Shown here in pieces: positions 12,374-39,352 of a stretch of DNA of 39,440 nucleotides. A program made the translations under genes and the position numbers. The stretch comes from Desulfurobacteriaceae bacterium. GTDB lineage: Bacteria; Aquificota; Aquificia; Desulfurobacteriales; Desulfurobacteriaceae. The stretch is from contig JBDOLX010000114.1 in NCBI GenBank assembly GCA_039832905.1, positions 1 to 39,440 on the forward strand, in the 5' to 3' direction. The notes beneath the pieces were generated by a model. It saw only the letters and a list, made by a program, of their open reading frames with translations. It did no database searches and was not told the origin of the DNA. Each line of letters starts with the position of its first letter. Within the stretch, counting starts at the first letter, position 1.

Positions 12374-12392
12374 TTTCTCTCTCCTAAAGCTA

Positions 12393-18913: not shown

Positions 18914-18978
18914 CTCTTTTCTCCCTTAAAAGGTTTGTATCTTAAGCTATTGAAAGCTTAAAAAACTCTTATTTTTCA

Positions 18979-19326: not shown

Positions 19327-19358
19327 CTAAAATCCTTTTTTTTAACTCATTCTTATTT

Positions 19359-21704: not shown

Positions 21705-21723
21705 CTCCCCTTTTCACTTCATT

Positions 21724-24740: not shown

Positions 24741-25126
24741 CTCCTCCTGCCGTACTGTTTTATTAGAAAATATACGTCATTTTTTAAAAAGCAAGTTTTT
24801 ACTTAATAACCGCCCGATTAACTCATAACTTACTATCTTTATAAATATCTCGTTAAAAAGTAGATTATTAACTAATAAAGTTAAACGAATAGCATTTTTT
24901 AGAAATTCAAATTACCAAACCTCCTAAGGAAGGTAACCTTGACAAGTTATAGAAATAAAAGTTATAATTATTTAATTCAAAAAGAAGGGAGGAAGTTCTT
25001 ACAAATTCCTGAACAATTGCTGTTACACCAAATAAGCAGAAAAAGAGCGAGAACACGACAGAGCGGTTATCAGTTAAAGTCTGTTTAGTAGAAGAACTAT
25101 CATAGACAGCAGCATTGGAGGGAGGT

Positions 25127-25936
25127 ATGAGGGAGAATTCATATCAGGACAAATATGAATGGAATGCAGAGGACTATGCAAGGCATTCTGCCTCTCAGAA
25201 AAAATGGGCAAAAGAATTGATTGATAAAATGAATTTAAAAGGACATGAATGGGTACTTGATATTGGTTGTGGTGATGGAAAAGTAACAGCTGAAATCGCC
25301 AGACACGTTCCTAAAGGCCGTGTAGTTGGAATTGATATTTCAGAAGAAATGATAGCCTTTGCTTCTCAAAAGTTTCCAACTTCGCAATACCCCAATCTAA
25401 TTTTTATACGAATGGATGCCTCAGCATTATCCTTCCGGGAAAAATTTGATATTGTTTTTTCAAATGCAGTTCTTCACTGGATTACTAATCATAAGCCTGT
25501 ACTAAAAGGAATATACCAAGCTTTAAAGCCAAATGGGAAATGTATTGTCCAAATGGGAGGCAAAGGGAATGCTGCAAGTGTTATTGAAACCTTAGATGAA
25601 ATTATAAACGAAAGGCCTTGGAAAGAATACTTTCATGATTTCTCCTTTCCTTATGGCTTCTATTCTCCCGAGGAATATAAACCATGGCTTGAAGAAGCAG
25701 GATTCAAGATTCAATACCTTGAACTGAAGCCAAAAATTATGGTTCACGAAGATATTGAAGAGTTCAAAGGGTGGATACGAACTACTTGGTTGCCGTATCT
25801 CTGCCGAATACCTAAAAAGTTAAGGAATCGCTTCATTGAAACAGTCGCCCAAAGATATGTTGAAAAATACCCACCAAGTAATGATGGAAAAATCAAAACA
25901 CTAATGCAGCGATTGGAATTCATAGTAACTAAATGA
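25127..25936 (+). CDS. Class I SAM-dependent methyltransferase, trans-aconitate methyltransferase (Tam)-like
   Basis: Motif I LDIGCGDGKVT, FSNAVLHW, IVQMGG; collinear with Tam. ATG 25127 follows a GGAGGGAGG RBS; the track ORF starts at 25115 inside the RBS. Confidence 0.7.
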   Translation: MRENSYQDKYEWNAEDYARHSASQKKWAKELIDKMNLKGHEWVLDIGCGDGKVTAEIARHVPKGRVVGIDISEEMIAFASQKFPTSQYPNLIFIRMDASALSFREKFDIVFSNAVLHWITNHKPVLKGIYQALKPNGKCIVQMGGKGNAASVIETLDEIINERPWKEYFHDFSFPYGFYSPEEYKPWLEEAGFKIQYLELKPKIMVHEDIEEFKGWIRTTWLPYLCRIPKKLRNRFIETVAQRYVEKYPPSNDGKIKTLMQRLEFIVTK

Positions 25937-26051
25937 TTACTTAGTTCTTTTCATAGATTGCATCTTCTATAAAGTAAAATCTACATAGTAATCAAATAAA
26001 CCGAGAAGAAGAAGGTTCAATTATTTTCATCCTACTAACTAAAGGAAAAAA

Positions 26052-26444
26052 ATGTTCACTTATGCATATATAAGAGTTTCTACAGATAAAGAGGAGATAG
26101 AAAATCAACGACTTGAGATTCTTAGATATGCTAACGAGAAAAAGTTCTGTCATCAAAAAGTTGACTTTTCCTGTCAAAAAATTAGATTCTCTTTAAGAAG
26201 GATAAAAGAAGATCAAAAAGCTATAAAAGATATAAAAGAGTTAAAAGGAACTGTAAGTGATAGATTTTCAGTTAAGTTTGATTTCATAAAAGGAATAGAA
26301 CCTGGAAAGATCAAGTCAAAAGAACAATTAGAGAAACTGTCAGAAAGAGACTGTGTGAAAATCCAGAGGAACAAAAAGAGAACTCATAGATTGAAGAAGC
26401 AAACAACTAAAAGCTATGAAGGAAAAAGGAACATGAGAGTGTGA
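26052..26444 (+). pseudogene. Chimeric ORF: serine-resolvase N-terminus (first ~33 codons) fused to a C-terminal fragment of a MazE-like antitoxin and the start of a MazF remnant
   Basis: MFTYAYIRVSTDKEEIENQRLEILRYANEKKFCHQK aligns with the resolvase start. IKEDQKAIKDIKELKGTVSDRFSVKFDFIKG parallels 27514-27732. DNA is ~95% identical to 27365-27480 and carries a deletion relative to the 27361-27939 locus. Confidence 0.7.
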
Positions 26445-26521
26445 AGTAAGGATCTTCTATTAAGGTTTTATTGTATTCTCTACAAGCCCCTTCTTTTACA
26501 ACTATCATAAATTCTCTGAGA

Positions 26522-26956
26522 TTATTTTATACCGAGATCCTCACAAACCTCTTTCGCTGTAAAAATTTTAATGTCTGGAGAAAAGAATCTTTTATCGTTA
26601 GTGAGTATCAAATCACATTTCTCTTTCTTTGCAAGAACATACTGAATGGTATCTTCAAGATCTTTAAAATTGCTATTGCTTTTCATTAAACTAACAGCTT
26701 CAATTACTTCTTTATTTGAAAAGGGAATTAAGGTAAAGACAGACATTGAGTCTTCTATATAGTTGAGAGCTTTTTCTTTGTTAACTTTAGAAAGAACATA
26801 ATAAATTGTAGTTATCAAATCACAACTTGTAAACAGTTCAACTCCCAACTTTAGAAGTTTCTCTATTGCCGAAATAGAGTAATGAGAGTTAGTTCTATCT
26901 TCGAAAAGATCTATGATTACATTGGCATCTACAAAAACTTTTTCAATTATCATCAA
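26522..26956 (-). CDS. vapC: PIN-domain toxin (VapC-like)
   Basis: VFVDANVIIDLF...; 144 aa. Overlaps the upstream RHH gene by 14 nt. Confidence 0.8.
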   Translation of the reverse strand: MMIIEKVFVDANVIIDLFEDRTNSHYSISAIEKLLKLGVELFTSCDLITTIYYVLSKVNKEKALNYIEDSMSVFTLIPFSNKEVIEAVSLMKSNSNFKDLEDTIQYVLAKKEKCDLILTNDKRFFSPDIKIFTAKEVCEDLGIK

Positions 26957-27215
26957 AGTCTTCTCCCATTTCTGCCTTTAATTCTTGAAAAGTTTTATTT
27001 TTTGCAACTCCTTTAAAGTATTTTCTATATTTTTTAAGTCGTTCAAAAGCTTCTATCCTTTTTTCCTTTTCAATCTCCTTTACCTCTTTCTCTATCAGTT
27101 CTTCAATAAGAGAACTTTGAGTTTTATTGTAAATCTTTGCCAACATCTCAAGGTCTTTTACCACTTTTTGAGACAATGTAATCGTTTTTCTTACTTTCTT
27201 TTCTGCAACACTCAT
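26943..27215 (-). CDS. vapB: RHH-type antitoxin (VapB-like)
   Basis: KTITLSQKVVKDLEMLAKIYNKTQSSLIEELI shows the RHH pattern. Upstream partner of the PIN gene. Confidence 0.7.
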   Translation of the reverse strand: MSVAEKKVRKTITLSQKVVKDLEMLAKIYNKTQSSLIEELIEKEVKEIEKEKRIEAFERLKKYRKYFKGVAKNKTFQELKAEMGEDFDDN

Positions 27216-27369
27216 CGTATCCCTCAGTAAGCTTTATTTATGCATATCTACCTATGTGTATAGAATTTACATCAACTTTGTCAAGTTTTCTACTGCAAAT
27301 CCACACTCCCAAAATATTGAGATGAAGTTTTACTATTTATCTTTCTTCAAAAATCTCATAATGAAAAAA

Positions 27370-27490
27370 GAGTTTCTACAGATAAAGAGGAGATAGAAAA
27401 CCAACGATTTGAGATTCTTAGATATGCTAACGAGAAAAAGTTCTGTCACCAAAAATTGACTTATCCTGCCAAAAAATTAGATTCTCCTTA
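27370..27490 (+). pseudogene. 5'-truncated fragment of a serine-resolvase gene start (RVSTDKEEIENQRFEILRYANEKKFCHQK...)
   Basis: About 95% DNA identity to 26073-26190. No start codon. Ends 24 nt before the antitoxin-like ORF at 27514. Confidence 0.7.
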
Positions 27491-27513
27491 AGAAAGTAAC
27501 TAAGAGGTTAAAT

Positions 27514-27732
27514 ATGAAAGTATTTACAACTAAGCCGGACAATGAGTATCAAGAGAAACTACGAAGAAAAGAATTAACAAAAAGAATGGTTAAAGCTGCA
27601 AAAAGGATGAAAGAAGACAAAGAAGCTATAGAAGACATAAAAGAATTAGAAGGAACTGTGGGTGATGGACTTTCAGTTAAGTTTGATCTCATAAAAAGAG
27701 TAGAACATGAAAAGACCAGATCAAAAGAATAG
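27514..27732 (+). CDS. MazE-like antitoxin (72 aa)
   Basis: Shares EAIEDIKELEGTVGDGLSVKFDLIK with the antitoxin at 23359-23601. Followed in-frame by a mazF remnant. Confidence 0.55.
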   Translation: MKVFTTKPDNEYQEKLRRKELTKRMVKAAKRMKEDKEAIEDIKELEGTVGDGLSVKFDLIKRVEHEKTRSKE

Positions 27733-27939
27733 TTAAGGAAACTGTTAGAACAGATAACTCCTGAAAATTTACATGATGAAGTTAATTGGGATAAAAAAGT
27801 GGAAGAGAGGAGTGGTAGATATATTCCTGAAAGAGGAGATGTTCTATGGTTACAGTTTTCACCACAAGCAGGACATGAACAGACAGGAAGAAGTTCTGCT
27901 ATTTATCTTTCTCCGAAAATTCTTATAATGGAAAGATAA
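27733..27939 (+). pseudogene. MazF-toxin remnant (N-terminal ~45 codons only, no start codon)
   Basis: In-frame translation ...RYIPERGDVLWLQFSPQAGHEQTGRRSAIYLSPK matches the E. coli MazF N-terminus (YVPDMGDLIWVDFDPTKGSEQAGHRPAVVLSP), then stops at 27937-27939. Confidence 0.65.
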
Positions 27940-27985
27940 GTTTAGAAAGATACAATTATTTCCACCCTATTGCTAAGGGAGAAAG

Positions 27986-28594
27986 ATGTCTACTTACGCT
28001 TATATAAGAGTTTCTACTGATAAGCAAGAAACAGAAAACCAAAGATTTGAAATTCTTAGATATGCTAATGAGAAGAAGCTAGGAAATGTTGAGATTATAG
28101 AAGAAACTATAAGTGGTAGGAAAAGTTGGAAAGTTAGAAAAATAGGTGCCCTTGTCCCTATGCTTTCAAAAGGGGATGTTCTTATCATTACTGAGCTTTC
28201 AAGACTTGGTAGATCTATGCTAGAGATTATGGAAATCTTATCTATCCTTCTAAGAAAAGGTGTAGAACTCCACGTTGTTAAAAATAGGCAAGTGTTAAAA
28301 GACGACTTGCAAAGCAAAGTCTTTGCAATGGCTTTCTCTATAGCTGCAGAGATAGAAAGAGAGCTAATCAGTCAAAGAACAAAAGAAGCTTTGAGAAGGA
28401 GAAAAGCAGAAGGTAAACCTCTTGGTAGACCTAAAGGTAGCTATTCCTCCAGACTAGACAAATACAAAGACCAAATAGAAGAGTTTAGAAAAAAAGGTGT
28501 ATCAATAGCATCTATTGCCAAGATTCTTGAAGTTCCTTATACAACTCTATATAGCTACCTAAAAAGACGAGAAAACTCAGATTCGAACTTCTAA
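27986..28594 (+). CDS. Serine recombinase (resolvase/invertase family), intact
   Basis: Catalytic YIRVSTDKQ with Ser10. C-terminal HTH SIASIAKILEVPYTTLYSYL. 202 aa. AAGGGAG RBS. Confidence 0.9.
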   Translation: MSTYAYIRVSTDKQETENQRFEILRYANEKKLGNVEIIEETISGRKSWKVRKIGALVPMLSKGDVLIITELSRLGRSMLEIMEILSILLRKGVELHVVKNRQVLKDDLQSKVFAMAFSIAAEIERELISQRTKEALRRRKAEGKPLGRPKGSYSSRLDKYKDQIEEFRKKGVSIASIAKILEVPYTTLYSYLKRRENSDSNF

Positions 28595-28663
28595 ATTTTT
28601 TTAAAAATGACAAAAAATACGCTTAAAGTGCATACCTTTTGAAGGAGGTTAAAAACAACTAAA

Positions 28664-28864
28664 GTGTTTAAAAGTGGAAATTCATGGACATTAAGATTAG
28701 CAAAAGAAGTTTATATAAAGAGAGAAAGAAACCGTATAGTTCTAATACCTAAAGAAAAGAAATGGGATGTTCTCTTCGAAAAACTCGAAGAGGTAAAAGA
28801 AGAAACAAAAAATTTCTTAATCGAAAGAAGTCAACCAGATCCTCAAGAAAAGGAGCTATTTTGA
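28664..28864 (+). CDS. AbrB/MazE-fold (SpoVT-AbrB) antitoxin
   Basis: MFKSGNSWTLRLAKEV swapped-hairpin motif. GTG start. Stop overlaps the ATG of the truncated PIN gene (ATGA). Confidence 0.65.
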   Translation: MFKSGNSWTLRLAKEVYIKRERNRIVLIPKEKKWDVLFEKLEEVKEETKNFLIERSQPDPQEKELF

Positions 28865-28971
28865 TGATATACATGCTAGATACCAACATATGTAGTTACA
28901 TAATTAGAAATAGACCAGAACATGTGAAAGAAAAACTCAAAAAAGTAGAACAACAACATAAAGTGGAATAA
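28864..28971 (+). pseudogene. Truncated PIN-domain toxin (VapC N-terminal 35 codons)
   Basis: MIYMLDTNICSYIIRNRPEHVKEKLKK matches the VapC N-terminus and terminates at 28969-28971. No continuation in any frame. Confidence 0.65.
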
Positions 28972-29102
28972 AAATATAAAGGTGAATTATGGGACTTTTA
29001 ATGAGAAAGTAGACTTAAATTTTTTTAGGAAAAAGAACTCTTTTATTTAAAAAACTTTTCTTTTAAAACCATTGATTCTCTAACAGAAAATCATAACCAT
29101 CT

Positions 29103-29315
29103 TTATCGCAATAGCTTCTCTTTAAAAGCTTTCTTTACCCTCTTTCCAACTTTTTCCGATAGCGCATAAACATAAACACCTGTAACAAGTACTAAAGCTC
29201 CTGAAAAGCCTTGTAATCCTTCAGGAAGGAAAGCTGCTATAACAGCAACAACTACTATTAGAGGGAAAAGAACTATAAACCCCATTAGTCTATCTATCAT
29301 TCTTAGCTCCCTCAA
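29103..29315 (-). CDS. Small membrane protein (70 aa, two predicted TM helices)
   Basis: Hydrophobic stretches FIVLFPLIVVVAVIAAFL and ALVLVTGVYVYAL. Last gene of a 4-gene overlapping operon. Confidence 0.5.
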   Translation of the reverse strand: MRELRMIDRLMGFIVLFPLIVVVAVIAAFLPEGLQGFSGALVLVTGVYVYALSEKVGKRVKKAFKEKLLR

Positions 29316-29764
29316 CTCGCTTTTAAAAGGAACTTCTTTTTAAGCTTCAATTTGCTTAATGTTTCTTCTATTAAATTCTCCATTTCCGGATGCATTTGCT
29401 TTAGTTTATCTAAGGAAAGCATCAATTTTTCAAACATTTCATCATCTAAACCTATTTCTCTCCCTTTTTCTACCTTATCTATTTCGTCAAGCCAAGTGTT
29501 TACTCTACTCAATCTTACCTCAGAAAATTTCCAACCACGACTCTTTAATGGTTCAGCATCTTCTCCCATAGATACGTAAACTACCAAAGAAAGAAGTTCA
29601 TTAACCAACTTAAGACGTAAATTTTCTTCTAGAAGTTTCTTTCTCTCCTCTTCCGAGCTTTTTACTTCTTTTCTTAATCTAACTTTCATTTCTTCCAACT
29701 TCGCTAAAATAAATAACAGAAAAAGCCTTTTTATCATTTCAGATCCATAACGTTGCAGTTTCAC
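29312..29764 (-). CDS. Hypothetical coiled-coil protein (150 aa) in the SPFH/NfeD operon
   Basis: 4-nt overlaps with both neighbours. No recognisable motif. Confidence 0.5.
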   Translation of the reverse strand: MKLQRYGSEMIKRLFLLFILAKLEEMKVRLRKEVKSSEEERKKLLEENLRLKLVNELLSLVVYVSMGEDAEPLKSRGWKFSEVRLSRVNTWLDEIDKVEKGREIGLDDEMFEKLMLSLDKLKQMHPEMENLIEETLSKLKLKKKFLLKAS

Positions 29765-30186
29765 TTTACTTTTTCAACAACAACCTTATTTCCTATAACC
29801 TTTTTAACAACAACTTTATCACCATATTCAAGTTCTTCCTCTGAAAATCCTATCCACAATTCCTCTCCGCCAGCCCCAAGTGGAAACCGGATCTGATAAT
29901 TCATATCGTCCACTTTTTTAACAACAATCCCCTCTTGTCCAATCAGATCAGATAAAGCATCTTCTACACCCTTTACCTTCTTAGCTATTTTGTAACTTAA
30001 GAAAGAAGCCGACAGAAGTCCTAATAGAAAACCTACTGAAAATGAAAAAATACTTGGTGAAAGGGAATAGAATACATATCCTAGAACAAACCCTACTCCT
30101 ACAGGAAATAGGAAAAAGGTCATAACAAAAACATCAATCACTATCAAAGCTAATCCTAATACAAGAAAAACCCATCCATTACTCAT
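29761..30186 (-). CDS. NfeD-family membrane protein (short form, C-terminal OB-fold)
   Basis: N-terminal TM helices. C-terminal GQEGIVVKKV...YQIRF...GEELW...GDKVVVKKVIGNKVVVE beta-barrel pattern. Adjacent to the SPFH gene. Confidence 0.75.
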   Translation of the reverse strand: MSNGWVFLVLGLALIVIDVFVMTFFLFPVGVGFVLGYVFYSLSPSIFSFSVGFLLGLLSASFLSYKIAKKVKGVEDALSDLIGQEGIVVKKVDDMNYQIRFPLGAGGEELWIGFSEEELEYGDKVVVKKVIGNKVVVEKVK

Positions 30187-31051
30187 CTCTCTTTCCTCTT
30201 GAAGTTCCTAAAAGATTTAAAAGTGAATCCACGGAGGACGGAAGAACAACTATCTTTGCATTCTGGCTTTCCGCTATTTTTTCAAGGGACTTTACATAGT
30301 TATCTCCAAGAAGTAATAGTCCTGCAAGCTTCTCATCTCCTACCGCTTCTTTTACGCTTTTTACAGCATTTGCCTGTGCTTCACCAATTCTTTCAATAGC
30401 TTCAGCTTCTTGCATCTTGGCAAGCTTATATCCTTCAGCTTCTAGTTCCTGTGCCCTTTTCTTTCCTTCTGCCTCAAGTATCATAGCTTTCTTTTTCCTA
30501 TCCGCTTCAATTAGCATACTCATAGCTTCTGCAATATTTCTTGGTGGTTTTATCTCCCTTACCTCTACCCTATTGATAATAATTCCCCAGCTTTTTGATG
30601 CCCCCTGAAGGACTTCTTTAATCCTTGCATTTATCTTTTCCCTAGAAGAGAGAATTTCGTCAAGTTCCATTCCACCTACAACATCTCTCAAGTTTGTTTG
30701 AATAGTCTGCACAATGGCATACTCAAGATTCTCTATGTTGTAAACAGCAGAAACAGGGTCAACAACCGTAAAGTAACAAACTGCATCTATTCCTACCACA
30801 ACATTGTCTTTGGTAATTACTTCCTGAGAAGGAATATCAAGCACCCGTTCTTTTAGACTTACTTTCGCTATAAGTGAATCAACAAAAGGGATGATAAAAT
30901 GAAGTCCTGCCCCTAATCTCCTGTGGTATCTTCCTAATCTCTCTACTATCCATTCTTCTTTTTGAGGAACAACCTTTACTGATAATAAGAAAATGAGTAT
31001 TAAGAAAACTAGAAGACTTACTGCAATTATTGTTCCTATACTCCATTCCAT
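30179..31051 (-). CDS. SPFH/band-7 (stomatin/prohibitin-like) membrane protein
   Basis: N-terminal TM anchor; SPFH core VVPQKEEWIVERLGRYHR...RVEVREIKPP; coiled-coil A/E/K-rich C-terminus. Confidence 0.85.
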   Translation of the reverse strand: MEWSIGTIIAVSLLVFLILIFLLSVKVVPQKEEWIVERLGRYHRRLGAGLHFIIPFVDSLIAKVSLKERVLDIPSQEVITKDNVVVGIDAVCYFTVVDPVSAVYNIENLEYAIVQTIQTNLRDVVGGMELDEILSSREKINARIKEVLQGASKSWGIIINRVEVREIKPPRNIAEAMSMLIEADRKKKAMILEAEGKKRAQELEAEGYKLAKMQEAEAIERIGEAQANAVKSVKEAVGDEKLAGLLLLGDNYVKSLEKIAESQNAKIVVLPSSVDSLLNLLGTSRGKRDE

Positions 31052-31123
31052 CTTCCCCTCCTATCCTCCTATCGTTTATTATCATAACAGCTAGTTAACC
31101 AAAAAGTAAATAGAGGCTTTGTT

Positions 31124-32461
31124 ATGGACGAAAATCTCAAAAAATTCAATGAGAAAAAAACTTACAGTAAACAGAATACAGCAAAAGAAGTTTTTACTTT
31201 TATCGCAATAATTTTTCCTCTTGCGTTTTTGTTCTACGTTATCTATGTCTCCTACCAAAAGTCCCAAATCAAACCTTTACTTTCCAACTTCCTAGAAGGT
31301 AAAAACCTTTCTATTTCTGAGTATGAGAAACTCTATAACTTCTATGGGATTAATCTAAAAGATAAAGAAGGAAATACTCTTCTCCACCGTTTAACTCTAA
31401 AAGTCTGTTCTCAAAAAATGAATTCTATCCCTCCTTTAATTCCAAGACTTTTAAAAGATGGACTTTCACCAAACGAAAGAAATAGAAAAGGACAAACTCC
31501 CCTCCATCTAGCTGCTGCCTACTGCAAAGATGAAGATACATTAAAAAAACTTCTTTCTCTTTTCCTAAAGTTTGGTGGTGACATAAATGCTAAGGATTGT
31601 GCAGGAAATACTCCACTCTTTTACACAATAGACTATGATGCTTACAACCCTCAAATAAGAACTCTTCTTAAGTTTAATCCAAATGTTAATGTCAAAAATT
31701 ACTACGGATGGACACCTCTTTGCAAAGCCGCATTCTTCGATATTGGAACATCCTTTCAACTTCTACAAAAATATGGAGGGAACATTCGTGAGAAATGTGG
31801 AGAAGTTTCCATTCCAGAACTTGTAAAAACTTTAAGTAGTAGAAAAGTAGCTAATTACCTAGAAAAATTAGGAATAGGTTTTAAAGAAATTAAAGAGTTA
31901 AAAGGAAACTTAAAGAAACTACTTTTTAAATCTTCAATCAATACTTTTTGTGTTAAGGAAGACTTTGAAAAAAACATAGAAAACGCTGTAGCGTTCTCAA
32001 TATATTTTGATCAAGCAGATAGAGTAAAAGCTTTTTTTAAGCACTCCTTATTCTCCTTAAATTCAACGATTACCTCCAAGGAATTTCCTGATACAAAGCT
32101 TAAAAGTTTTTCTCCACTGTTACTGGCTGTTTATAGCAAATCCTGTTCCCCAAAAGTCTTAAGTTATTTTCTAACACTTGGAGTTAACCCTAACAAAAGG
32201 TTAGAGAACGGTAAAACACTCCTTCACATCTGCGTAGAAAGAGGATGTGTCGAATGTGCAAAGCTTCTTATAGAAAATGGAGCAGACGTCCACCTAAAAG
32301 ATAAAAAAGGCTTTACTCCTTACTGTATAGCTGTTGCTAATGGAAGAAAAAGAGTTGTAAAAGAACTTTTAACCTACGGAGCCAATCCTAAAGACCCTTG
32401 TGTTGAAATGGCTAAACTTCTTAGAGAAATGGAAGAGTTCTCTCAAGATACATTGTGGTAA
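31124..32461 (+). CDS. Ankyrin-repeat protein with N-terminal transmembrane anchor
   Basis: TM helix FTFIAIIFPLAFLFYVIYVSY. Ankyrin units GNTLLHRL, GQTPLHLAAAYC, GNTPLFYTI, GWTPLCKAA, GKTLLHICVERGCVECAKLLIENGADVHLKDKKGFTPYCIAVANG. Confidence 0.8.
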   Translation: MDENLKKFNEKKTYSKQNTAKEVFTFIAIIFPLAFLFYVIYVSYQKSQIKPLLSNFLEGKNLSISEYEKLYNFYGINLKDKEGNTLLHRLTLKVCSQKMNSIPPLIPRLLKDGLSPNERNRKGQTPLHLAAAYCKDEDTLKKLLSLFLKFGGDINAKDCAGNTPLFYTIDYDAYNPQIRTLLKFNPNVNVKNYYGWTPLCKAAFFDIGTSFQLLQKYGGNIREKCGEVSIPELVKTLSSRKVANYLEKLGIGFKEIKELKGNLKKLLFKSSINTFCVKEDFEKNIENAVAFSIYFDQADRVKAFFKHSLFSLNSTITSKEFPDTKLKSFSPLLLAVYSKSCSPKVLSYFLTLGVNPNKRLENGKTLLHICVERGCVECAKLLIENGADVHLKDKKGFTPYCIAVANGRKRVVKELLTYGANPKDPCVEMAKLLREMEEFSQDTLW

Positions 32462-32572
32462 GTAAAGAATAAGCCTTACAAAAATAAGTAACTTCTACAC
32501 TATCCACACTCAAGACTGTTCTAGGAAAATTTTCATCGGAAATTTTCTGCTTACTATAGAGTTTTTGTAAGT

Positions 32573-32914
32573 ATGCTATGTTTTATTAAGGAAAGGATCG
32601 AGAAGTTGAAGGTTAAACAGCCAGGAAAAACTCTTCAGAAAATAATTCACGCTTTAAAGGAACACCAAGAAGAGCTTAGAGAAATACACAAGGTTAAGAA
32701 TCTTAAAGTTTTCGGTTCTTATGCTAAGAATGAACAAACAGAAAATAGTGACCTTGACTTAATGGTTTCCTTTGGGAAGACTCTTACTTTGCTTGAGTTC
32801 ATTGAACTTAAAAAGTACTTAGAGAGTATAACAGGAATAAAAGTGGATTTAGTTACAGAAGATGGCATAAGTCCTCATATAAAGCCATATATTGAAGCGA
32901 CTGAGATATTGTAG
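32573..32914 (+). CDS. Minimal nucleotidyltransferase (MNT) antitoxin of a HEPN/MNT pair
   Basis: GSYAKNEQTENSDLDLMVSF matches the GS...SDxD nucleotidyltransferase motif. 113 aa. Confidence 0.75.
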   Translation: MLCFIKERIEKLKVKQPGKTLQKIIHALKEHQEELREIHKVKNLKVFGSYAKNEQTENSDLDLMVSFGKTLTLLEFIELKKYLESITGIKVDLVTEDGISPHIKPYIEATEIL

Positions 32915-32915
32915 T

Positions 32916-33251
32916 TGAAGGAAACAAAAGTGCATCTAAAACCCATTCTTCAAGAACGTGAGTTCTTAATGGAAAACTCTTTAGGTATTTTATGAGTAAT
33001 CATGTGCTTGAACATGCATTTATTAGAAGCCTTGAAATTATAGGCGAAGCCTTGAGAAACTTCCTTTAGATCTAGGAGAACAATATCCTGAAATTCCGTA
33101 AAGAAAATTTGCTGGAATGAGAGATGTTCTAATCAATGATTATTTTGGTGTAGATTACAAACTTATTTGGAAGACTATTATAAAAGAAGTGCCTTTACTT
33201 AAAGAGCAGGTGCAGAAAATCTTGGTAGAAATAGAAGAAAATGAGAAATAA
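32916..33251 (+). pseudogene. HEPN (DUF86) toxin gene decayed by at least two frameshifts/stops
   Basis: Across three frames reads ...NHVLEHAFIRSLEIIGEALRNF / LDLGEQYPEIP / AGMRDVLINDYFGVDYKLIWKTIIKEVPLLKEQVQKIL. This matches the DUF86 consensus including the R-x(4-6)-H-like GMRDVLINDY region, but TTTAG and CCGTAAAG interrupt the frame. Confidence 0.65.
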
Positions 33252-33730
33252 CAATAATCTACTCCTTTCAAACTCTCTAGAAACAACTTCAGTAATTTCT
33301 GACAAGATAAGAGGAAGCTCGTAGTAAGTAACTGCTTCTGTTTATACAATTAGCCAAAACTTCTGCCCGCAGAAATTAGGTTGTAAATAGTTGTTATCCC
33401 TCGGCTTTTCGGATTCTTTGTTGAAAACTATGTAGGTTAAAAAGTTTGTGCATACTCTCTGTGCATTCTGTAATGTGAAAAAATCCTGTGCAATTCTGTG
33501 TAATGTACAGCTGTGCATTTACCTGTGCAGTTTAGTTTTTCTCTATCCATCTAAAACGAAGCGTTATAAGAGGATCATGCCGTTCTAAAAAAAACAAACA
33601 GAACAGGAAACAGGATAGAAAATTGTTTTACTAACCGAAACAACTGTTAAGGTTAAACGTCAACTATGTAAGTACTAATTCACTATAAAATACTAGTATT
33701 CTTTATTCAAAGAAAAACAGGAGAAGACAG

Positions 33731-34249
33731 ATGAAACAGAAGTTTCCTCGCTTTAAAGTACCGAAAGAGATATTAGCAAAAGCAGAGGCAATGTACTGGT
33801 TTCCGTTTCTAAAACATGACATATTTACAAGGCATTACAAAGTTACTAAAGAAATAGAAGAAATGGTTTACTTCACTTACAGAAAACTATCTCGAAATAA
33901 CCCACTTGTAAGCATAGATGAACTACAGGTCGAAACACAACTACCATTAAAAGTAGTTATATCTGCAATACAACAACTAAATAGTAGAGACATCTGTTTG
34001 TTAAAGATAGTGCCCACAAAACTTACAGAATTCGTTATTGGTGGAGAATACGATTATAATGAAATTAAAGAACTCGTTGAAAAAATAGCAGGCAAAAGCC
34101 AATACTATGGATTTGAAGAGTTTGGAATAATGACAAAAATCCTTCAGTTTTTAAAAGGAAAAGGAGTAGATATTGATAACGTCCCTGAATACCCTGATCA
34201 GGAAGAATTTGGAATTACAGAAGATGATTTAAAAAATATAGACATCTAG
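33731..34249 (+). CDS. Hypothetical protein (172 aa)
   Basis: ORF with an AGGAGAAG RBS. No recognisable motif. Confidence 0.5.
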   Translation: MKQKFPRFKVPKEILAKAEAMYWFPFLKHDIFTRHYKVTKEIEEMVYFTYRKLSRNNPLVSIDELQVETQLPLKVVISAIQQLNSRDICLLKIVPTKLTEFVIGGEYDYNEIKELVEKIAGKSQYYGFEEFGIMTKILQFLKGKGVDIDNVPEYPDQEEFGITEDDLKNIDI

Positions 34250-34272
34250 ATCTATCAAGAGGAGTAAAGTAA

Positions 34273-34614
34273 ATGCTGGCTAAAAGAATGTTAGACGAAA
34301 TTTTGATGAATTTAACAGGTAAGTATCTAAGTCTTGATGAGTTTGCAGAAAGATTAAGAGATAGGCTTATATGGCAAGGACTCAAAAATCTACAAATTAA
34401 GATAGACGATGAGGCCTTATGTATTGCAGTTTTTCATCCTGATGACACTCCGATACTCTATACATTCTTAAGTGAACTCAGCGATGAAGACAGAACTGTT
34501 GAAGGACACCAATATGGTTATGTGCACGCAGAATACTGGGTCAGACCAAATCCTATTATTTGGAATAGAGATGGATTAACAAAACTGGAGAAAATTCTTT
34601 TAAGTAAGAAATAG
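34273..34614 (+). CDS. Hypothetical protein (113 aa)
   Basis: ORF with a GAGGAG RBS. 23-nt gap from the preceding gene. Confidence 0.5.
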   Translation: MLAKRMLDEILMNLTGKYLSLDEFAERLRDRLIWQGLKNLQIKIDDEALCIAVFHPDDTPILYTFLSELSDEDRTVEGHQYGYVHAEYWVRPNPIIWNRDGLTKLEKILLSKK

Positions 34615-34877
34615 GGAATAAATTTCAATAACAGAGAAGTTAGACATAACATAAAACAATTCTCAGAGATTTTTCAAGAAAACAGTCAATAATTCTCTTA
34701 ACTCCTAGAACTACCACTAAAAATAGGAAACAGTACATTTAAATATGTTTCATATGTAAATAATATGCATTTTACATACTCAGACAGATACCAATTTCTA
34801 TTTACAAAGGACTACTTTACAAATTAGTTGTAAAGTGAAGTAGACATAATCGTAAATTTCAATCACTGGAGATAAAG

Positions 34878-36071
34878 ATGATTAAAATCTACGCTAACAA
34901 AAAATTAAGTGGTGATCTCTACTACCAGGAAAATGAACATAAATACATTTTCAACTCGAGAATAATCCTATTTCAATTACTATGCCTTTTTCCTACGAGA
35001 GTTATATTTCGAGATTCTACTTACATCCCATATTTGATATGAATATGTCAGAAGGGTATCTCTTCGAACTACTAGTGAATATTTTGCGTAAAGAATTTAG
35101 AAAAGTTAACGACCTTACGATCTTTAAAGCTTTATCCCCTTTCCTTGAGGGCCGGCTAACATATAAAGTAGATGAAAATCCTATTCGCCAGCAAATAGAA
35201 GTAGAGTTATCCTTTGACGATGTCATAGAAGATAACGAAGCAGATCTATTCAAGAAACTTGTAAACGCTTTTTTATTTAAGTCGGCAATATCTGGAGTAC
35301 AATCAAAGGTTCTAGCTACATTAAAGAGTAAAACATCTTTCACAGAAAAAGATTACATAGTTAAAACTTTTAAAGATGAGTTTCCCCATTTAGCAGAAAA
35401 CGAGTATTTCTGTATGAAAGCCATACAGTACGCAAAAATTCCAACTCCAAAGTTTTGGCTTTCTAAGAACAAAAGATTCTTCATAATAGAAAGGTTTGAC
35501 TATAATCGTGAGACCGGAAAATCTAAAGCTTTTGAAGAGTTTTGTGTTTTGTTTAAAAAGCACAGAGTTTCAAAGTATGAAGGATCTTACGAAAAGATTG
35601 CTAAGATTTTAGGAAAAATATCTTCTAATACCGAAAAAGACTTACAAACATACTTTAAGTCAATAGTAATGAACTTTCTACTAAAAAACGGAGATGCTCA
35701 TCTGAAAAATTTCGGAATTCTTTACGATAGCTACGAGAATATAAATAAGATTAGCCCCTGCTTATGACATTGTTAATACAATCGTTTACCTTCCAAAAGA
35801 TAAACCAGCACTTTTTCTTAAAGGGAGAAAAGTATGGTATTCCAAAAAAGAACTTATTAAGTTTGGAGAGGAATTCTGTCTATTAACACCAGAAAAAGCA
35901 AAGGAACTATTTGAAAACTGTGAATTCGCAGTTTCAAAAATAATCAAAGAAATTAAAGAATATGCAGAAGAAGTTCCTGAATTTAAGGAATTTGCTAATA
36001 GAACGGTGGCTATTCTGCACTTCTCCTTGGATAAGAACCTCAAAGAAACCTATAAAGAAATTCCAAAATGA
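34878..36071 (+). pseudogene. hipA: HipA-family Ser/Thr kinase toxin gene split by two frameshifts. Frame 0 at 34878-34958, frame 2 at 34943-35767, frame 0 at 35751-36071
   Basis: N-terminus MIKIYANKKLSGDLYYQENEHKYIF (HipA N-terminal subdomain). Second frame has NNPISITMPF...IFDMNMSEGY, AISGVQSKV (P-loop-like) and LKNGDAHLKNFGILY (catalytic). The third frame restores LAPAYDIVNT and the C-terminus. The stop overlaps the ATG of the downstream HTH gene. Confidence 0.7.
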
Positions 36072-36322
36072 GGTATTCTAATGGAATATTGGGAAATAGG
36101 AAAAAAATCAGAGAACTTAGAAAAAGGAAAGGAGTTACCCAAGAGGAGTTGGTACGTAAAGTCAACATTTCAAGACAGATTCTTTCAACTTTAGAAAATG
36201 GACTTTTGGGCAGAATAACTGTTGCAATGCTAATATACATACTACACCAATTAGGACACGAACTCGACATAAAAGAAAGAAAAAGAACTTTCTTCTTCGA
36301 TCCATCTATGGTAGGCGACTAA
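36068..36322 (+). CDS. XRE-family HTH protein, HipB-like candidate antitoxin
   Basis: KKIRELRKRKGVTQEELVRKVNISRQILSTLENG is a classic XRE helix-turn-helix. ATGA overlap with the hipA remnant. Confidence 0.65.
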   Translation: MRYSNGILGNRKKIRELRKRKGVTQEELVRKVNISRQILSTLENGLLGRITVAMLIYILHQLGHELDIKERKRTFFFDPSMVGD

Positions 36323-36411
36323 CTACTTCCAAATAGTTTTGATTGGAGACTCAAACCTTAAGAATTTTCCCTTTCTATTTTCCTCTTTTGCCTTTTCTTT
36401 TTTCCCAGATT

Positions 36412-36652
36412 TCCCCTCTATCCCGTCTGATTTCGCTTCTAACGAATTCCAAGTTAAATAAAGGTATTACTTCCCCCCCTCTATCTCGTCTCAGAGACCC
36501 AAATCCGTTAACGAGAGAGTGTCTCTTTTCCAGTCTTAGAACTGTATCCCTGATTGATAGCAATAAGCAATAACAGTCAAACTTTAAGTCAAAACTTCTG
36601 AGGGCAGAAGTAATGCTGATTGACAAGTTGGCAGATTGGCAGGTCTGCTTAC
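36412..36652. repeat. Conserved ~245-bp noncoding block, copy A (counterpart of 39353-39440+1-175)
   Basis: See the feature at 1-175. Contains hairpin CTTCTGAGGGCAGAAG (36595-36610) and GCTGATTGACAAG / CAGATTGGCAGG direct repeats. Confidence 0.8.
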
Positions 36653-36689
36653 AAAGGTAAGAACGAAAATGAAAAGTGGAAAGTAAAAA

Positions 36690-36890
36690 GTAGGAATTTG
36701 AATGCTGAAATCTGAATTTTGAAAGCTGGAAGCTGAATGCTGAATTCAGGATGTTGAATGTTGAAATCTGAATTCAGAATTCTGAAAGTTAAATGCTGAG
36801 TTCTGAATGTTGAATTCAGAATGCTGAATGTTAAATGTTAAATGTTAAATGTTGAATGTTAAATGTTGAAACTTAATCTGAATTTAAATT
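36690..36890. repeat. Tandem array of ~11-bp units (TGAATGCTGAA / TGAATGTTAAA) and AATTCAGAATTCTGA palindromes
   Basis: Visible as AATGTTAAATGTTAAATGTTAAATGTTGAATGTTAAATGTTGAAA. Not CRISPR. Confidence 0.8.
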
Positions 36891-37010
36891 CAGAAACTAT
36901 AAAGTCCCTATTTATTAAAAGTAATATTACTTTTAATAGGAAAATGCACAATATATATATATGTGCACATATACATGTGCACAAGATTACTTAACATTGT
37001 GCACACTCTG
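36891..37010. promoter_or_regulatory. Perfect 24-bp palindrome ATTAAAAGTAATATTACTTTTAAT (36914-36937) followed by TGTGCACA-type boxes (36961-36970, 36974-36983, 36998-37007)
   Basis: Counterpart of 363-500. Lies ~400 bp upstream of the iterons. Confidence 0.55.
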
Positions 37011-37149
37011 AATTGTGAATTTCAACTCCTGATTTCGATTTCAATTGAGAAATCAGAACTGGTTTTTGATCTTAATTTGCGGAATCGACTTTCAAAAGTA
37101 GAAAGTAACTTTGAGGCAGATAATCACTCCATTCTAAAAAAACGATAAA

Positions 37150-37582
37150 GCTGCAGCCCCGAAAAAATTTTTTCGCCGCCGCTTTTATAAAAAAAATTGA
37201 AAGTTTTTAGAGGAAAGCGTTTATTAATTAGTTTTCGCTAATGTTGTTAGTTTCGCTTTTTCTAATTCTTTGCTTTAACAAAAAAAAAGAAAAAGCAAGT
37301 TTCAGCCAGCTTCGCTGCATCTGTTAGCAAATCTGTTAAGTAATCTGTTACTTAATCTGTAAGGATGGCTTAGGTTATTGACTCTTAAGATCTTTCTTCA
37401 TGTTTTCTTGTTTGAAAGCACGCACTCTCTTGTTTGAAAGCACGCACTCTCTTGTTTGAAAGCATGCACTCTCTTGTTTGAAAGCACGCACTCTCTTGTT
37501 GTCTATTTGAAACATTTTGACAATACATTGAATGCAATTTAAATCTGTGTTACACTTGCATTAACGTAAGAGGGAGGTATTT
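37150..37582. promoter_or_regulatory. Candidate replication origin (oriV) and rep promoter region
   Basis: AT-rich with A-tracts (AAAAAAAAAGAAAAAG 37281-37296), a GCCGCC island, and direct repeats CTGTTAGCAAATCTGTTAAGTAATCTGTTACTTAATCTGTAAG. The 22-bp iterons lie immediately upstream of the putative rep gene. Confidence 0.6.
37406..37500. repeat. Four complete 22-bp iterons CTTGTTTGAAAGCACGCACTCT (third copy has one C-to-T change) plus a partial fifth
   Basis: Exact tandem repeats at 37406-37427, 37428-37449, 37450-37471 and 37472-37493, 90 bp upstream of the putative rep ATG. Confidence 0.9.
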
Positions 37583-38854
37583 ATGGATAGTAACGTAAAA
37601 ATAAAAATAGATTTCAATCTCCTTCAGTCTGGAACTTGGGTTCTGGAAAAGAAAGGGAATCAACAGATTCATTATTTTGAAAAGAAAATAGGGGAAGGAA
37701 AAATAATTATTTATAACGCTTTAGATGTTCCGAGTCCTATTGACAGCAAAATTCTTGATTATTTGATGGTTAGATCTCAGGAAATGCAGTGGGCAGAAGA
37801 AATTACTATTCCTTCATTGCGAACCTTGGCGAAAGAAATTGGTATGGGAACTGATAAAAAGAGGCTTGAACGCATAAGGAGAGGGTTAGAGATACTTGTG
37901 AATACTAGAATACGTTTTGAAAACTGTTTTGTGGATAATGGTACTTTGGACTATATAAAAGGGGGGGATTATGAAGTTATAAACATAGGTATCTTGACTG
38001 ACTATACAATAGAAAAAGTAAGTAAAAGAGGGCAACCCCGACAGATTACTGTTTGGTTTAATAAAAACTTTATTTCTTTATGTAAGCATTCACTTGGTTA
38101 CAAACTAATTCCCTATGCTCCAATACAGGGTCTAAGAGACACGGCTTATGCACTTTATAAGTGGGCTTATCGCTGGTATGACTCATCTAAAGGCTATGGT
38201 GAAAGGTGGATAGGGAGTGGGAAAGCGTTAGTTGATTGGTATAAAAACGAACTTAATAGTGTTGCTCAATATAAGTATCCTTCGGAGGTCTTAAGAAGAA
38301 TAAAGGTGGCAATTAAACAGCTTAATGAGAATCCAAAGGTTCCTTTTGGTCTTAATCTTAAAGAAGAAAATGGAAACTACAAGATAGAACTTTATCGTAA
38401 AGAAGGAGTTATTCTCAAAACTAAAAGAGAAATTCTTTTTGATAAGTTACCTAGGGCTTTAAGAGAAGCTATTATTAAACTGATAGAGAAGAAAAAGCAT
38501 ATTAAGGACTCCTATGCCTTAGCCCGTTCTATGTCCCTTAAAGAATTGGAAATTCTTCTTAAAAAACTTGTAGTTATCCAGCTTCCTAAAAGTACGTGGG
38601 AAATGATAGAGACTTTATATTCCGACATAAGAGACTTTGAACCTGAGGATGTGAAGAAGTCAAAAATAGAGGTAATAGAAGCACCGATAGGAAAAGAAGT
38701 AAAAGGCGAATTTGTTTATTTAGTGGTTGAAAAAGAAAAGCTAAATGAGAAACATAGTTTTTATAAAACACTTGAAGCTATTATTCCAAGCTGGAGAGAA
38801 GGATTGCAGAAAGCAGTTGGTTATCTAAAAGAGGTTCAGCTTACAAAGCTTTAA
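37583..38854 (+). CDS. Putative iteron-binding replication initiator (Rep), 423 aa
   Basis: Position directly downstream of the iterons. GGGAGG RBS. Winged-helix-like segment IPSLRTLAKEIGMGTDKKRLERIRRGLEIL. The assignment is mainly contextual. Confidence 0.55.
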   Translation: MDSNVKIKIDFNLLQSGTWVLEKKGNQQIHYFEKKIGEGKIIIYNALDVPSPIDSKILDYLMVRSQEMQWAEEITIPSLRTLAKEIGMGTDKKRLERIRRGLEILVNTRIRFENCFVDNGTLDYIKGGDYEVINIGILTDYTIEKVSKRGQPRQITVWFNKNFISLCKHSLGYKLIPYAPIQGLRDTAYALYKWAYRWYDSSKGYGERWIGSGKALVDWYKNELNSVAQYKYPSEVLRRIKVAIKQLNENPKVPFGLNLKEENGNYKIELYRKEGVILKTKREILFDKLPRALREAIIKLIEKKKHIKDSYALARSMSLKELEILLKKLVVIQLPKSTWEMIETLYSDIRDFEPEDVKKSKIEVIEAPIGKEVKGEFVYLVVEKEKLNEKHSFYKTLEAIIPSWREGLQKAVGYLKEVQLTKL

Positions 38855-38971
38855 TTGATTGTGGTTTTTCCAGGAATAGAAAGTTGTGCTTTTGTTGTTT
38901 AAAAATCCTGTGCATTGTGTGCTTCTAAGTTTTATTTCATGTGCATTTTCTTATGTTGCTTCTTGTGTACT

Positions 38972-38998
38972 GAACTTCTGCCCGCAGAAATTTTTTGT
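38972..38998 (+). terminator. Rho-independent terminator candidate downstream of rep (AACTTCTGCCCGCAGAAATTTTTTG)
   Basis: TTCTGC/GCAGAA stem with a short loop, followed by a T6 run. Confidence 0.55.
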
Positions 38999-39053
38999 CA
39001 AGTTTCTTTTTCTCTCTTACTTTTGAAATAGAAGAAAGTTTTGAGAGGTTACT

Positions 39054-39347
39054 ATGCTGAAATATAATCCTGAAACAGATACTCTCTATGTTTCTTTCTA
39101 CGACGAGGAGAAAAAGAAACAGGTCAGTCTGATAATCTCTGAGGTTAGCAAAAAGTCAGAGTATTTTCCTGAAGATGATATTCTGTGGGTAGATATTTCG
39201 GAAAAAAAGTCCTTTGAAAGTGAACACATATTTGATGGCAATTTTGTGGTTGACTTTGATAAAAACGGAGACCCAGTAGGACTGGAAATCTTTGGTTGGA
39301 AAAGGTTTTACGACGAAAGGTGTGTAGGTAAGCAAGAGAAAAAATAA
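39054..39347 (+). CDS. DUF2283-family small protein
   Basis: YNPETDTLYVSF...VVDFDKNGDPVGLEIFG matches the DUF2283 pattern (YDxExDxLYI...D.DxxGxxVGIEI). Confidence 0.55.
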   Translation: MLKYNPETDTLYVSFYDEEKKKQVSLIISEVSKKSEYFPEDDILWVDISEKKSFESEHIFDGNFVVDFDKNGDPVGLEIFGWKRFYDERCVGKQEKK

Positions 39348-39352
39348 AAAAT

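Follow-up and report, generated by a model that had tools for sequence, protein, structure and literature searches.

Diverged composite modules with heptad arrays on both sides of the replication region of a 39-kb deep-sea-vent plasmid: candidate protein-binding maintenance sites

The 39,440-nucleotide (nt) contig JBDOLX010000114.1 from a Desulfurobacteriaceae bacterium (assembly GCA_039832905.1), which in its full length we refer to as the window, is a 39-kb plasmid of a deep-sea-vent thermophile. Its replication region, consisting of oriV, the initiator gene rep and a DUF2283 gene, is flanked by two diverged copies, A and A′, of a noncoding module of ~600 bp in direct repeat. The pair had been pointed out in a preliminary description made from the letters of the same DNA. 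We propose, as a tentative reading that is plausible rather than probable, that the modules are cis-acting, protein-binding maintenance sites of a RepE/RctB-like iteron replicon, with heptad arrays like those of omega- or ParG-type centromeres. In favor of this are the noncoding character of the modules, their lack of resemblance to a known RNA, and their dense, enriched motifs that look like protein-binding sites. Plasmids of the Aquificota, a deep-branching thermophilic lineage, are almost unstudied, and no description of such elements was found in the literature consulted on Desulfurobacteriaceae plasmids.

Anatomy of the two modules

The first and last 19 bases of the window are identical (positions 39422-39440 repeat 1-19), which makes it a circular contig of 39,421 bp. 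The G+C content of the circle is ~32%, and its gene content is of the plasmid type, with parA, dnd genes, genes for GmrSD-like nucleases, toxin-antitoxin pairs, a resolvase gene and one replication region. Copy A occupies 36412-37005, and copy A′ occupies 39352-39440 and continues at 20-637. BLAST and MAFFT aligned the two over block 1 (36412-36647 against 39352..176; 82.7% identity, 249 columns) and block 2 (36877-36975 against 373-468; 90% identity, 100 columns), both matches being among the strongest self-matches of the circle, so the two diverged copies on either side of the rep region are real, and they have more structure than was first described. The common composite architecture that had been described was also borne out when the coordinates of all parts were verified in both copies. 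In each, two CTCTATCYCGTCT repeats are followed by an 18-nt hairpin (ACTTCTG-N4-YAGAAGT), a TGATTGRCA box exactly 5 nt 3′ of the hairpin, a tandem array, an 18-bp palindrome (TCTGAATTTAAATTYAGA), a 26-bp palindrome and GTGCAC boxes. Up to the hairpin, block 1 of A is 90.6% identical to that of A′ over aligned columns, and the longest exact identity between the two modules is 25 bp.

Neither low-complexity similarity nor hidden coding sequence accounts for the pair. The open reading frames (ORFs) that overlap the modules have no Pfam match, and the copies differ by indels of 1, 2, 3 and 14 nt; no coding ORF is conserved between A and A′, since the indels of 1, 2 and 14 nt break the frame, and the heptad repeats run through all three frames and bring in stop codons. 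Several motifs of the modules are strongly over-represented. GTGCAC occurs 10 times in the window against 1.5 expected, with 7 of the 10 occurrences inside the two modules, and, relative to shuffled sequence, the hairpin pattern has five matches against 0.1 expected, TGATTGRYA seven against 1.5, and the palindrome pattern seven against 1.1.

Block 1 of A is preceded by a 70-bp polypyrimidine tract (36340-36411; TTTTCCCTTTCTATTTTCCTCTTTTGCC..., a 22-bp unit repeated 1.9 times). This tract is not present at A′ or at the downstream module of the related plasmid described below, where the stop codon of the DUF2283 gene precedes the module instead. A gene for an HTH_3 protein (36068-36322) is a further neighbor of copy A.

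A related plasmid carries the same bracket

The closest relative of the window Rep, P0002 (79% amino acid identity), comes from vent metagenomes and has the two-module bracket as well. Five overlapping contigs from different samples (L058, L059, L067, L068 and L069) can be assembled into module U - oriV - rep - DUF2283 - module D. On their right sides, U is the ortholog of A, with the TGTGCACAAGATTAYTYAACATTGTGCACA repeat followed by oriV-proximal sequence, and D is the ortholog of A′, with ATATACAGG..TTATGTGCACAT boxes, the GAACC..GGTTC hairpin and the third palindrome. Because the relative has the same bracket with orthologous sides, the two-module arrangement predates the split of the two plasmids, and the duplication of the module is old. 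Beyond this relative, the module was not recovered: PLSDB searched by blastn in distant mode with 36300-39440 returned no match, a scan of genome contigs with the hairpin-core pattern gave one chance match (Jeotgalicoccus), and three patterns run against viral contigs gave either nothing or a chance match of a 21-mer inside one phage gene family.

To gauge neutral divergence in the downstream segment, we used adjacent third codon positions, 259/342 (76%) of which are identical between the two plasmids. Against these, block 1 is identical between A′ and D at 164/184 positions (89%; Fisher p = 2e-4) and block 2 at 125/135 (93%; Fisher p = 1e-5). On the upstream side, the hairpin and proximal heptads of A and U are 79% identical and the end of block 2 is 86% identical, compared with 43% at third positions; oriV, also on this side, is 82% identical. 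Block 1 of A up to the hairpin is 86% identical to D. These comparisons indicate purifying selection on the conserved blocks or, at the least, an age far below that of the surrounding sequence, and conservation above the level of neighboring third positions argues against a functionless scar.

The rep gene itself is mosaic between the two plasmids (37583-38854 against L058 1195-2463), with third positions 42-44% identical over codons 1-180 and 70-90% identical from codon 181. The divergent N-terminal half of rep is accompanied by a different variable iteron half (GCACGCACTC against CACTAAACTC). Module U also carries a G+C-rich insertion of ~150 bp (L058 21-170) with strong nested hairpins (GGTGC..GCACC and GCGGGC..GCCCGC) in surroundings of ~32% G+C.

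The arrays are built of heptads and change faster than the flanks

The preliminary description had assigned unit lengths of 21 and 11 bp to the two arrays. These lengths are wrong: Tandem Repeats Finder returned a period of 7 with 0% indels for both. An autocorrelation scan found 7-bp periodicity at only four places in the circle (188-401, 543-633, 36658-36897 and 5158-5261), at lag 14/21 for the last and at lag 7 for the other three. They correspond to 32 heptads in A, ~26 in the first array of A′ (A′1), ~7 in a second array of A′ and ~10 in a partial third copy, C. Within each array the units follow one another without gaps and in phase, with an inverted heptad pair at the array ends, and the plus strand of the arrays is purine-rich and C-poor.

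The units had further been called unrelated between the copies, which is true of the distal heptads only. The arrays of A and A′1 both start with AAAGTRG-type heptads and, both being built of heptads, are not wholly unrelated. In A the distal units are AAWGYTG, which is KYTGAAT in another register; the other classes are AGTAGTA (A′1), TGCAAAG (the second array of A′) and TTGAKRN (C), and the array of U consists of TCWGAAA units. The A array contains 14 matches to the palindrome half-site TCTGAAT, a number reached by 0/300 shuffles. The half-site is likewise enriched (0/300 shuffles) in D and U, and is not enriched in A′1 or C. The heptads of A, D and U are copies of this half-site of the terminal palindrome.

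That the arrays turn over much faster than their flanks, as had been claimed, is supported. Between A and D the first 13 heptads are nearly identical and are followed by indels of 21 and 14 bp, and homologous arrays differ by indels of 14 or 21 bp, which are multiples of 7. Module D, the ortholog of A′, lacks the second array, which is therefore a lineage-specific expansion.

Module copies have exchanged sequence

Aligned three ways with A and A′, D follows A′ on the left of the hairpin loop, at 21 informative sites against 8, and A on the right, at 29 against 6. The breakpoint falls between 36602 and 36605, inside the 4-nt loop (maximum chi-square, permutation p ~ 1e-4), with a resolution set by the few informative sites. 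Near the 26-bp palindrome, D reverts to A′-type sequence; with this second boundary, near 36940, the exchanged piece becomes a tract of ~340 bp, as expected from gene conversion or a cassette swap. The alignment shows past exchange between module copies, with one breakpoint in the hairpin loop.

Three near-identical versions of the relative are informative as well. Across ~1 kb of rep and DUF2283 together with the beginning of block 1 they do not differ at all, and every difference lies inside the module: five clustered substitutions toward the A type (a conversion patch), a single base change in the stem of the hairpin, a loop inverted from CCCG to CGGG, a 21-bp indel in the array and a 25-bp deletion that removes half of the long palindrome. 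Such hairpin-centered exchange, together with the loop flip, offers a tractable case of recombination at a short palindrome.

We considered whether the hairpin and its flanks are a res-, cer/dif- or oriT-like site, so that the modules would be scars or substrates of cointegration, resolution or cassette exchange that move the rep segment or an array cassette between plasmids. The mosaic breakpoint in the loop is what such a site would leave, and the loop inversion is the sole change between two contigs that are otherwise 99.9% identical; hairpin copies with mixed flanks also occur elsewhere in the window (copies E and F). Ordinary homologous exchange should be rare with a longest exact A/A′ identity of 25 bp. 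In cer and psi, the accessory sequence lies on one side of the core, and the modules likewise have a short inverted repeat beside constrained 'accessory' sequence, here ~180 bp on one side and ~200 bp in cer, psi and res; resolvase genes are present on the plasmid, as a pseudogene and several fragments among others. The conserved TGATTGGCAGG box that follows the inverted repeat after 5 nt gives a geometry compatible with oriT, and this box resembles TGGCAGGA of T-DNA borders.

Nevertheless, we regard this possibility as distinctly unlikely. Two active sites in direct repeat would excise the only rep gene, and the bracket has yet been kept in two diverged plasmids; cer, psi and res differ in this respect, in that resolution would delete direct repeats of this kind from a single replicon, and instead of the one site per replicon expected of res there are two full direct copies, an arrangement retained in the relative. 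The second boundary near 36940 describes a gene-conversion tract rather than a single reciprocal crossover, and the breakpoint itself is placed by few informative sites. Arms of 7 bp with a 4-bp spacer fit typical tyrosine-recombinase cores poorly, no three-subsite res architecture was recognized in this 7+4+7 geometry, and searches of the window turned up no gene for a relaxase or an integrase. The decayed resolvase gene that had been noted next to A′ is indeed there, with one frameshift and two stops, but the regions upstream of both the decayed gene (1239-1335) and the intact one (27720-27985) are unlike the module, and the module is situated past the 3′ end of the decayed gene, whereas a res site is normally found upstream of the resolvase gene. 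We therefore abandoned the earlier suggestion of res-like sites.

It had also been predicted that recombination between the copies would excise a rep minicircle. The recombination itself finds support in D, where A′-like sequence on the left is joined at the hairpin to A-like sequence on the right, the left-hand junction expected of an A x A′ exchange at this point. The free ~3-kb minicircle was not found, as the downstream module of the relative runs on into A′-type sequence and not into oriV. A model in which a 3-kb plasmid, of which the relative would be the free circle, had integrated into a larger one was rejected for the same reason, and because L058 has no terminal overlap and the window holds a single recognizable rep gene. 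That exact identity between A and A′ never exceeds 25 bp may explain why homologous deletion does not quickly remove the bracket.

The variability of the modules could instead mean that they have no present function and are a duplicated intergenic remnant of an old cointegration or tandem duplication, containing a selfish or neutral heptad minisatellite. The confinement of all differences among near-identical plasmids to the module would follow naturally from this, as would distal arrays of unrelated sequence, a lineage-specific second array in A′ and the absence of the module from most plasmids of the Rep family. We find this very unlikely in view of the blocks, which are significantly more conserved than neighboring synonymous sites, of the several distinct motifs that are strongly over-represented, and of the survival of the two-copy arrangement through the divergence of two plasmids despite the risk that deletion poses to an essential gene. 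If the arrays do prove to be neutral minisatellites between constrained blocks, the modules would be well-documented but ordinary plasmid anatomy.

The modules as a possible source of RNA

A different role for the hairpin would be that of a terminator. The hairpin and array would then form a transcription unit on the minus strand, with a promoter in block 2 and a G-poor heptad-repeat RNA of ~250-350 nt that ends at the hairpin and serves as an antisense RNA, a protein sponge or a copy-control element. On the minus strand the hairpin is followed by TTTTG in A, A′, D, U and E, and copy F, with T6 after it, resembles a rep terminator; the stem is kept while the loop varies (AGGG, CCGG, CCCG, CGGG and TCCT), and the strand asymmetry of the arrays would suit a transcript. 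However, scans for sigma-70 promoters found no more sites than in shuffled sequence, none of them rightly placed for such a unit, and the stems of A′, C and L068 contain G.T wobbles that only RNA from the plus strand, the wrong one, would tolerate. A 7-bp stem with three G-C pairs would probably be weak at a growth temperature near 70-75°C (PMC3570795), and the repeats of A and A′, being unrelated in sequence, speak against a common RNA target. Rfam gave no match at gathering thresholds and none that was credible at E <= 1, where only chance microRNA and RAGATH-7 matches far below thresholds appeared, and folding z-scores of -1.0 and -0.9 (about -1 on both strands) were unremarkable. Taken together, these results make the RNA unit unlikely and speak against the small-RNA loci proposed earlier. 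Block 1 as a structured RNA was likewise rejected, the alignment fold having one compensatory pair among 55 and z-scores of about -1.

The bracketed replicon and its iterons

Between the modules lie four 22-bp iterons, then rep, then the DUF2283 gene, so that the direct repeats do flank an oriV-rep-DUF2283 segment as first described. No Pfam or NCBIfam model covers the Rep family. An AlphaFold model of Rep (mean predicted local distance difference test score, 76.5) matches domains 2-3 of RctB (E = 3.5e-9) and RepE; judging from this model, Rep is a winged-helix iteron initiator, and this fold makes the bracketed segment a true replicon. More than 120 Rep homologues are found on small vent-metagenome contigs, several of which are circles of ~6 kb (terminal overlaps in L001, L002, L004 and L005), and the family is abundant on small circular plasmids in vent metagenomes despite its lack of a Pfam model. 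Iterons of the Rep family have the half TCTTGTTTGAAA in common.

The position of the modules around an iteron replicon with a RepE/RctB-fold Rep recalls P1 (incC-repA-incA), F (incB-repE-incC) and Vibrio chromosome 2 (incII, RctB), where arrays likewise stand on both sides of a RepE/RctB-class initiator gene and where a copy-control or incompatibility role through handcuffing is plausible. By analogy with P1 incA and F incC, the modules could bind Rep as auxiliary arrays and so hold copy number in check, either by titration or by handcuffing (pairing), an established mechanism of iteron plasmids (PMC6312765), with the heptads as degenerate half-iterons. The family-wide iteron half contains TTGAAA, a member of the A-type heptad family, although this motif carries little information in DNA of 32% G+C. 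The arrays of P1, F and Vibrio are made of origin iterons, whereas the modules are iteron-free and their repeats measure 7 bp rather than 19-22 bp: no iteron or conserved half-iteron was found in any module at up to 2-3 mismatches, the AGTAGTA and TGCAAAG arrays are unlike the iteron, the true extra iterons lie outside the modules, and 57 other Rep-family loci have no such arrays. Rep titration by the modules is thus highly improbable, and half-iterons as the origin of the heptads were rejected after the iteron searches.

The two orphan iterons (2749-2769 on the plus strand and 3653-3673 on the minus strand) are nearly perfect, inverted copies of the 22-bp origin unit that flank a methyltransferase ORF (2848-3471), at a distance of ~4-5 kb from oriV along the circle. 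A role in pairing or regulation through Rep is conceivable.

The modules as proposed protein-binding maintenance sites

The model that we tentatively favor treats the modules as an old duplication of a cis-acting accessory region kept on both sides of oriV-rep-DUF2283. Its constrained parts would be the left block with its two direct repeats; the 7+4+7 inverted repeat with the adjacent TGATTGGCA boxes and three or four AAAGTRG heptads; and the palindromic right block, with TCTGAAT-TTAA-ATTCAGA and the GTGCAC boxes. The heptad minisatellite that separates left from right would expand, contract and be replaced by slippage and inter-copy gene conversion. One or more plasmid-encoded, dimeric DNA-binding proteins would occupy the palindromes and spread cooperatively along the contiguous 7-bp units, as the ribbon-helix-helix (RHH) protein omega does on the heptad parS arrays of pSM19035, and the resulting nucleoprotein complexes would serve maintenance through partition or pairing of the replicon, insulation, or both.

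Of the known systems, parS of pSM19035 (Inc18) offers the closest parallel in repeat structure, being composed of contiguous, gap-free 7-bp units in direct and inverted orientation, of which at least four contiguous heptads are required (PMC9499535). All four arrays of the window contain at least four gap-free heptads, and inverted units occur too; the heptads of A, D and U, as copies of the palindrome half-site, recall the direct and inverted heptads of parS. Both plasmids have several arrays, placed near partition and replication-control genes, and in both a small (~70 amino acid) RHH or RHH-like protein is encoded after a small ParA (omega after ParA delta in pSM19035; in the window, a 70-amino acid RHH-like ORF after a ParA of 210 amino acids). 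The arrays of pSM19035 have a single heptad consensus, WATCACW. The window arrays have no consensus in common, fall into at least four sequence classes and are several times longer (19-33 contiguous heptads against 7-10 units). The RHH-like ORF, whose several Pfam RHH matches all fall below threshold, has no detected homology to omega.

The type Ib systems pB171 par2 and TP228 parH (ParG) likewise combine an RHH centromere-binding protein with arrays of many short units, which in pB171 form two short-repeat arrays on both sides of a maintenance operon, in the order parC1-parA-parB-parC2 (PMC4270457). There the arrays bracket parAB, whereas here they bracket oriV-rep-DUF2283 and only the partial third copy adjoins parA; the window arrays are, moreover, embedded in a composite with a hairpin, conserved blocks and GTGCAC boxes. 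Unit lengths in pB171 par2 and TP228 parH are 6 and 8 bp, not 7.

Partition sites for the ParG-like protein had been among the functions first suggested. In support of this, copy C occupies the canonical centromere position upstream of the type Ib parA-RHH operon: it sits between parA, on the minus strand, and a helicase gene, with its array 200-340 bp upstream of parA, and its hairpin (ACTTTTG-CCGG-CAGAAGT, 5089-5106) and TGATTGGCA box (5112-5120) have the same 5-nt spacing as in A and A′. Proteins related to the window RHH have a near-identical beta-strand, and their loci failed to bear the suggestion out, as described below. We therefore dropped the ParG-like protein as a demonstrated binder, and the palindrome copy at the parA ribosome-binding site was rejected as its operator, being absent upstream of parA in L063, which encodes an RHH protein 84% identical to that of the window.

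Candidate binders are the ParG-like RHH protein and the DUF2283 protein, whose gene lies directly upstream of the downstream module. Rep and DUF2283 are the only proteins found to travel with the module. DUF2283 is a domain of FseA, a transcriptional activator of ICEMlSymR7A (PMC4755241), and the protein is for this reason a candidate, as a lead only. Searches of PDB sequences with the DUF2283 and RHH proteins gave no informative match. A DUF2283 homologue that is 62% identical to the window protein is encoded immediately 3′ of a gene for a Piwi-domain (prokaryotic Argonaute-like) protein on a vent-metagenome contig (L072 1383-2786).

Several observations weigh against protein-binding maintenance sites of this kind. 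Searches of 57 Rep-family metagenome loci (<=65% identity) found no module similarity (E < 1e-3), hairpin or heptad periodicity, so the module is not a family-wide companion of this Rep. No heptad array or hairpin was found at seven loci of ParA/RHH relatives (L049 and L060-L065; RHH 58-84% identical), and what clusters in the parA promoter is the motif ACAT[AG]T rather than a heptad. Because the distal heptads differ between arrays (KYTGAAT, AGTAGTA, TGCAAAG and TTGAKRN), a single sequence-specific binder cannot read all of them. Plasmids that are otherwise identical differ in their arrays, hairpin loop and 26-bp palindrome, which makes parts of the module dispensable. Finally, recent exchange between lineages, instead of constraint, could account for some of the conservation of the blocks, Rep itself being mosaic.

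A bolder proposal, which we consider speculative and decidedly unlikely, casts the heptad arrays, with the hairpin as their boundary, as specificity cassettes that can be exchanged within a new plasmid-maintenance system, their heptads and the palindromes being read by the FseA-like DUF2283 protein or another small plasmid protein. Array swaps at the hairpin and palindrome would then give closely related, co-resident vent plasmids a new partition or incompatibility identity without altering the replicon otherwise. Taken further, the proposal would have the flanking modules allow oriV-rep-DUF2283 as a whole to pass from one plasmid to another as a replicon cassette.

Should the modules prove to have a maintenance role, they would extend heptad-array, centromere-like elements for the first time beyond the Firmicute Inc18 plasmids and would show in nature how very fast arrays can turn over between plasmids that are identical elsewhere. 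Such turnover bears on how partition and incompatibility specificities diversify in dense plasmid communities.

Feature coordinates and further observations

Table 1. Features of the modules, their partial copies and the replicon in the window (a strand is given where one applies).
Feature	Position	Strand	Remarks
A block 1	36412-36593	+	two CTCTATCYCGTCT direct repeats (36416, 36479)
A hairpin	36594-36611		ACTTCTG-AGGG-CAGAAGT; minus strand then TTTTG; recombination breakpoint in loop
A TGATTGRCA / TTGGCAGG boxes	36612-36651	+	first box 5 nt after hairpin
A heptad array	36652-36875	+	32 in-phase 7-bp units
A 18-bp perfect palindrome	36877-36894		TCTGAAT-TTAA-ATTCAGA, two inverted heptad-type half-sites
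A 26-bp perfect palindrome	36913-36938		TATTAAAAGTAATATTACTTTTAATA; dispensable: not in module U, half-deleted in L068
A GTGCAC palindromic boxes	36943-37005		include inverted repeat TGTGCACAA-N12-TTGTGCACA
A′ block 1, first part	39352-39440	+	begins 5 nt after DUF2283 stop
A′ block 1, rest across circle junction	1-120	+	89% identical to module D of the relative
A′ hairpin	121-138		ACTTCTG-CCGG-TAGAAGT; G.T wobble, plus strand only
A′ boxes	139-187	+	16-bp unit AATRCTGATTGGCAGG, two copies
A′ heptad array 1	188-372	+	proximal AAAGTRN and AAATCAG; distal ~19 copies of AGTAGTA
A′ block 2	373-518		palindrome TCTGAATTTAAATTTAGA (373-390), 26-bp palindrome (409-434), four GTGCAC boxes (440-492), GAACC..GGTTC hairpin (500-518)
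A′ second heptad array and third palindrome	558-637	+	TGCAAAG, ~7 units (558-613); palindrome 620-637
Partial third copy C	5089-5262	+	hairpin, TGATTGGCA box, ~10 TTGAKRN heptads
Palindrome-like copy CCTGAATTTAAAATTTAG	4933-4950		overlaps parA ribosome-binding region
Hairpin copy E	33359-33376		ACTTCTG-CCCG-CAGAAAT; module-type left flank GCCAAAAC
Hairpin copy F	38974-38991	+	3′ of rep, then T6; TGTGCA motifs before
oriV iterons	37406-37500	+	22 bp x 4.3, TCTTGTTTGAAAGCACGCACTC; within bracketed replicon, outside module
rep	37583-38854	+	predicted initiator with RepE/RctB-like winged-helix fold, no Pfam match
DUF2283 gene	39054-39347	+	stop codon 5 nt before module A′; same linkage in relative
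parA, type Ib	4292-4924	-	210 amino acids, CbiA/AAA_31; 70-amino acid RHH-like ORF follows (4022-4234, minus strand)
Serine-resolvase pseudogene	638-1238	-	adjoins A′; one frameshift and two in-frame stops

The inverted repeat within the GTGCAC boxes of A is kept in module U, and block 2 of A′ is 92.6% identical to module D.

Hairpin copies E and F (33359-33529 and 38880-38991) share 20 identical nt, and each is accompanied by a cluster of TGTGCA motifs, which in E follows the hairpin at 33447-33529. Copy E lies upstream of an ORF at 33731-34249, and copy F looks like the terminator of rep.

The ACAT[AG]T motif forms clusters of six sites upstream of dndB (16918-17017) and four in the parA promoter region (4963-5062), compared with three or fewer per 100 bp in shuffled sequence, and a related motif, AAATACATATA, occurs in the parA-RHH intergenic spacer of the window and of L065. 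The RHH protein or a global regulator could use ACAT[AG]T as its operator.

The serine-resolvase gene and its 5′ region are present as four copies or fragments (26012-26444, 27368-27494, 27947-28594 and 638-1238), namely one intact gene, one pseudogene and two N-terminal fragments, a set that suggests repeated resolvase-associated rearrangements. The pseudogene product is 84-87% identical in amino acid sequence to that of the intact copy (27986-28594).

Next to the dnd cluster, the window encodes an FtsZ/tubulin-family protein of 338 amino acids with Tubulin and FtsZ_C domains (21724-22740, minus strand), which might act in partition or in defense, and this gene lies directly upstream of genes for a GmrSD-like nuclease and a WD40-repeat protein (19359-21704 and 17120-18913, both on the minus strand).

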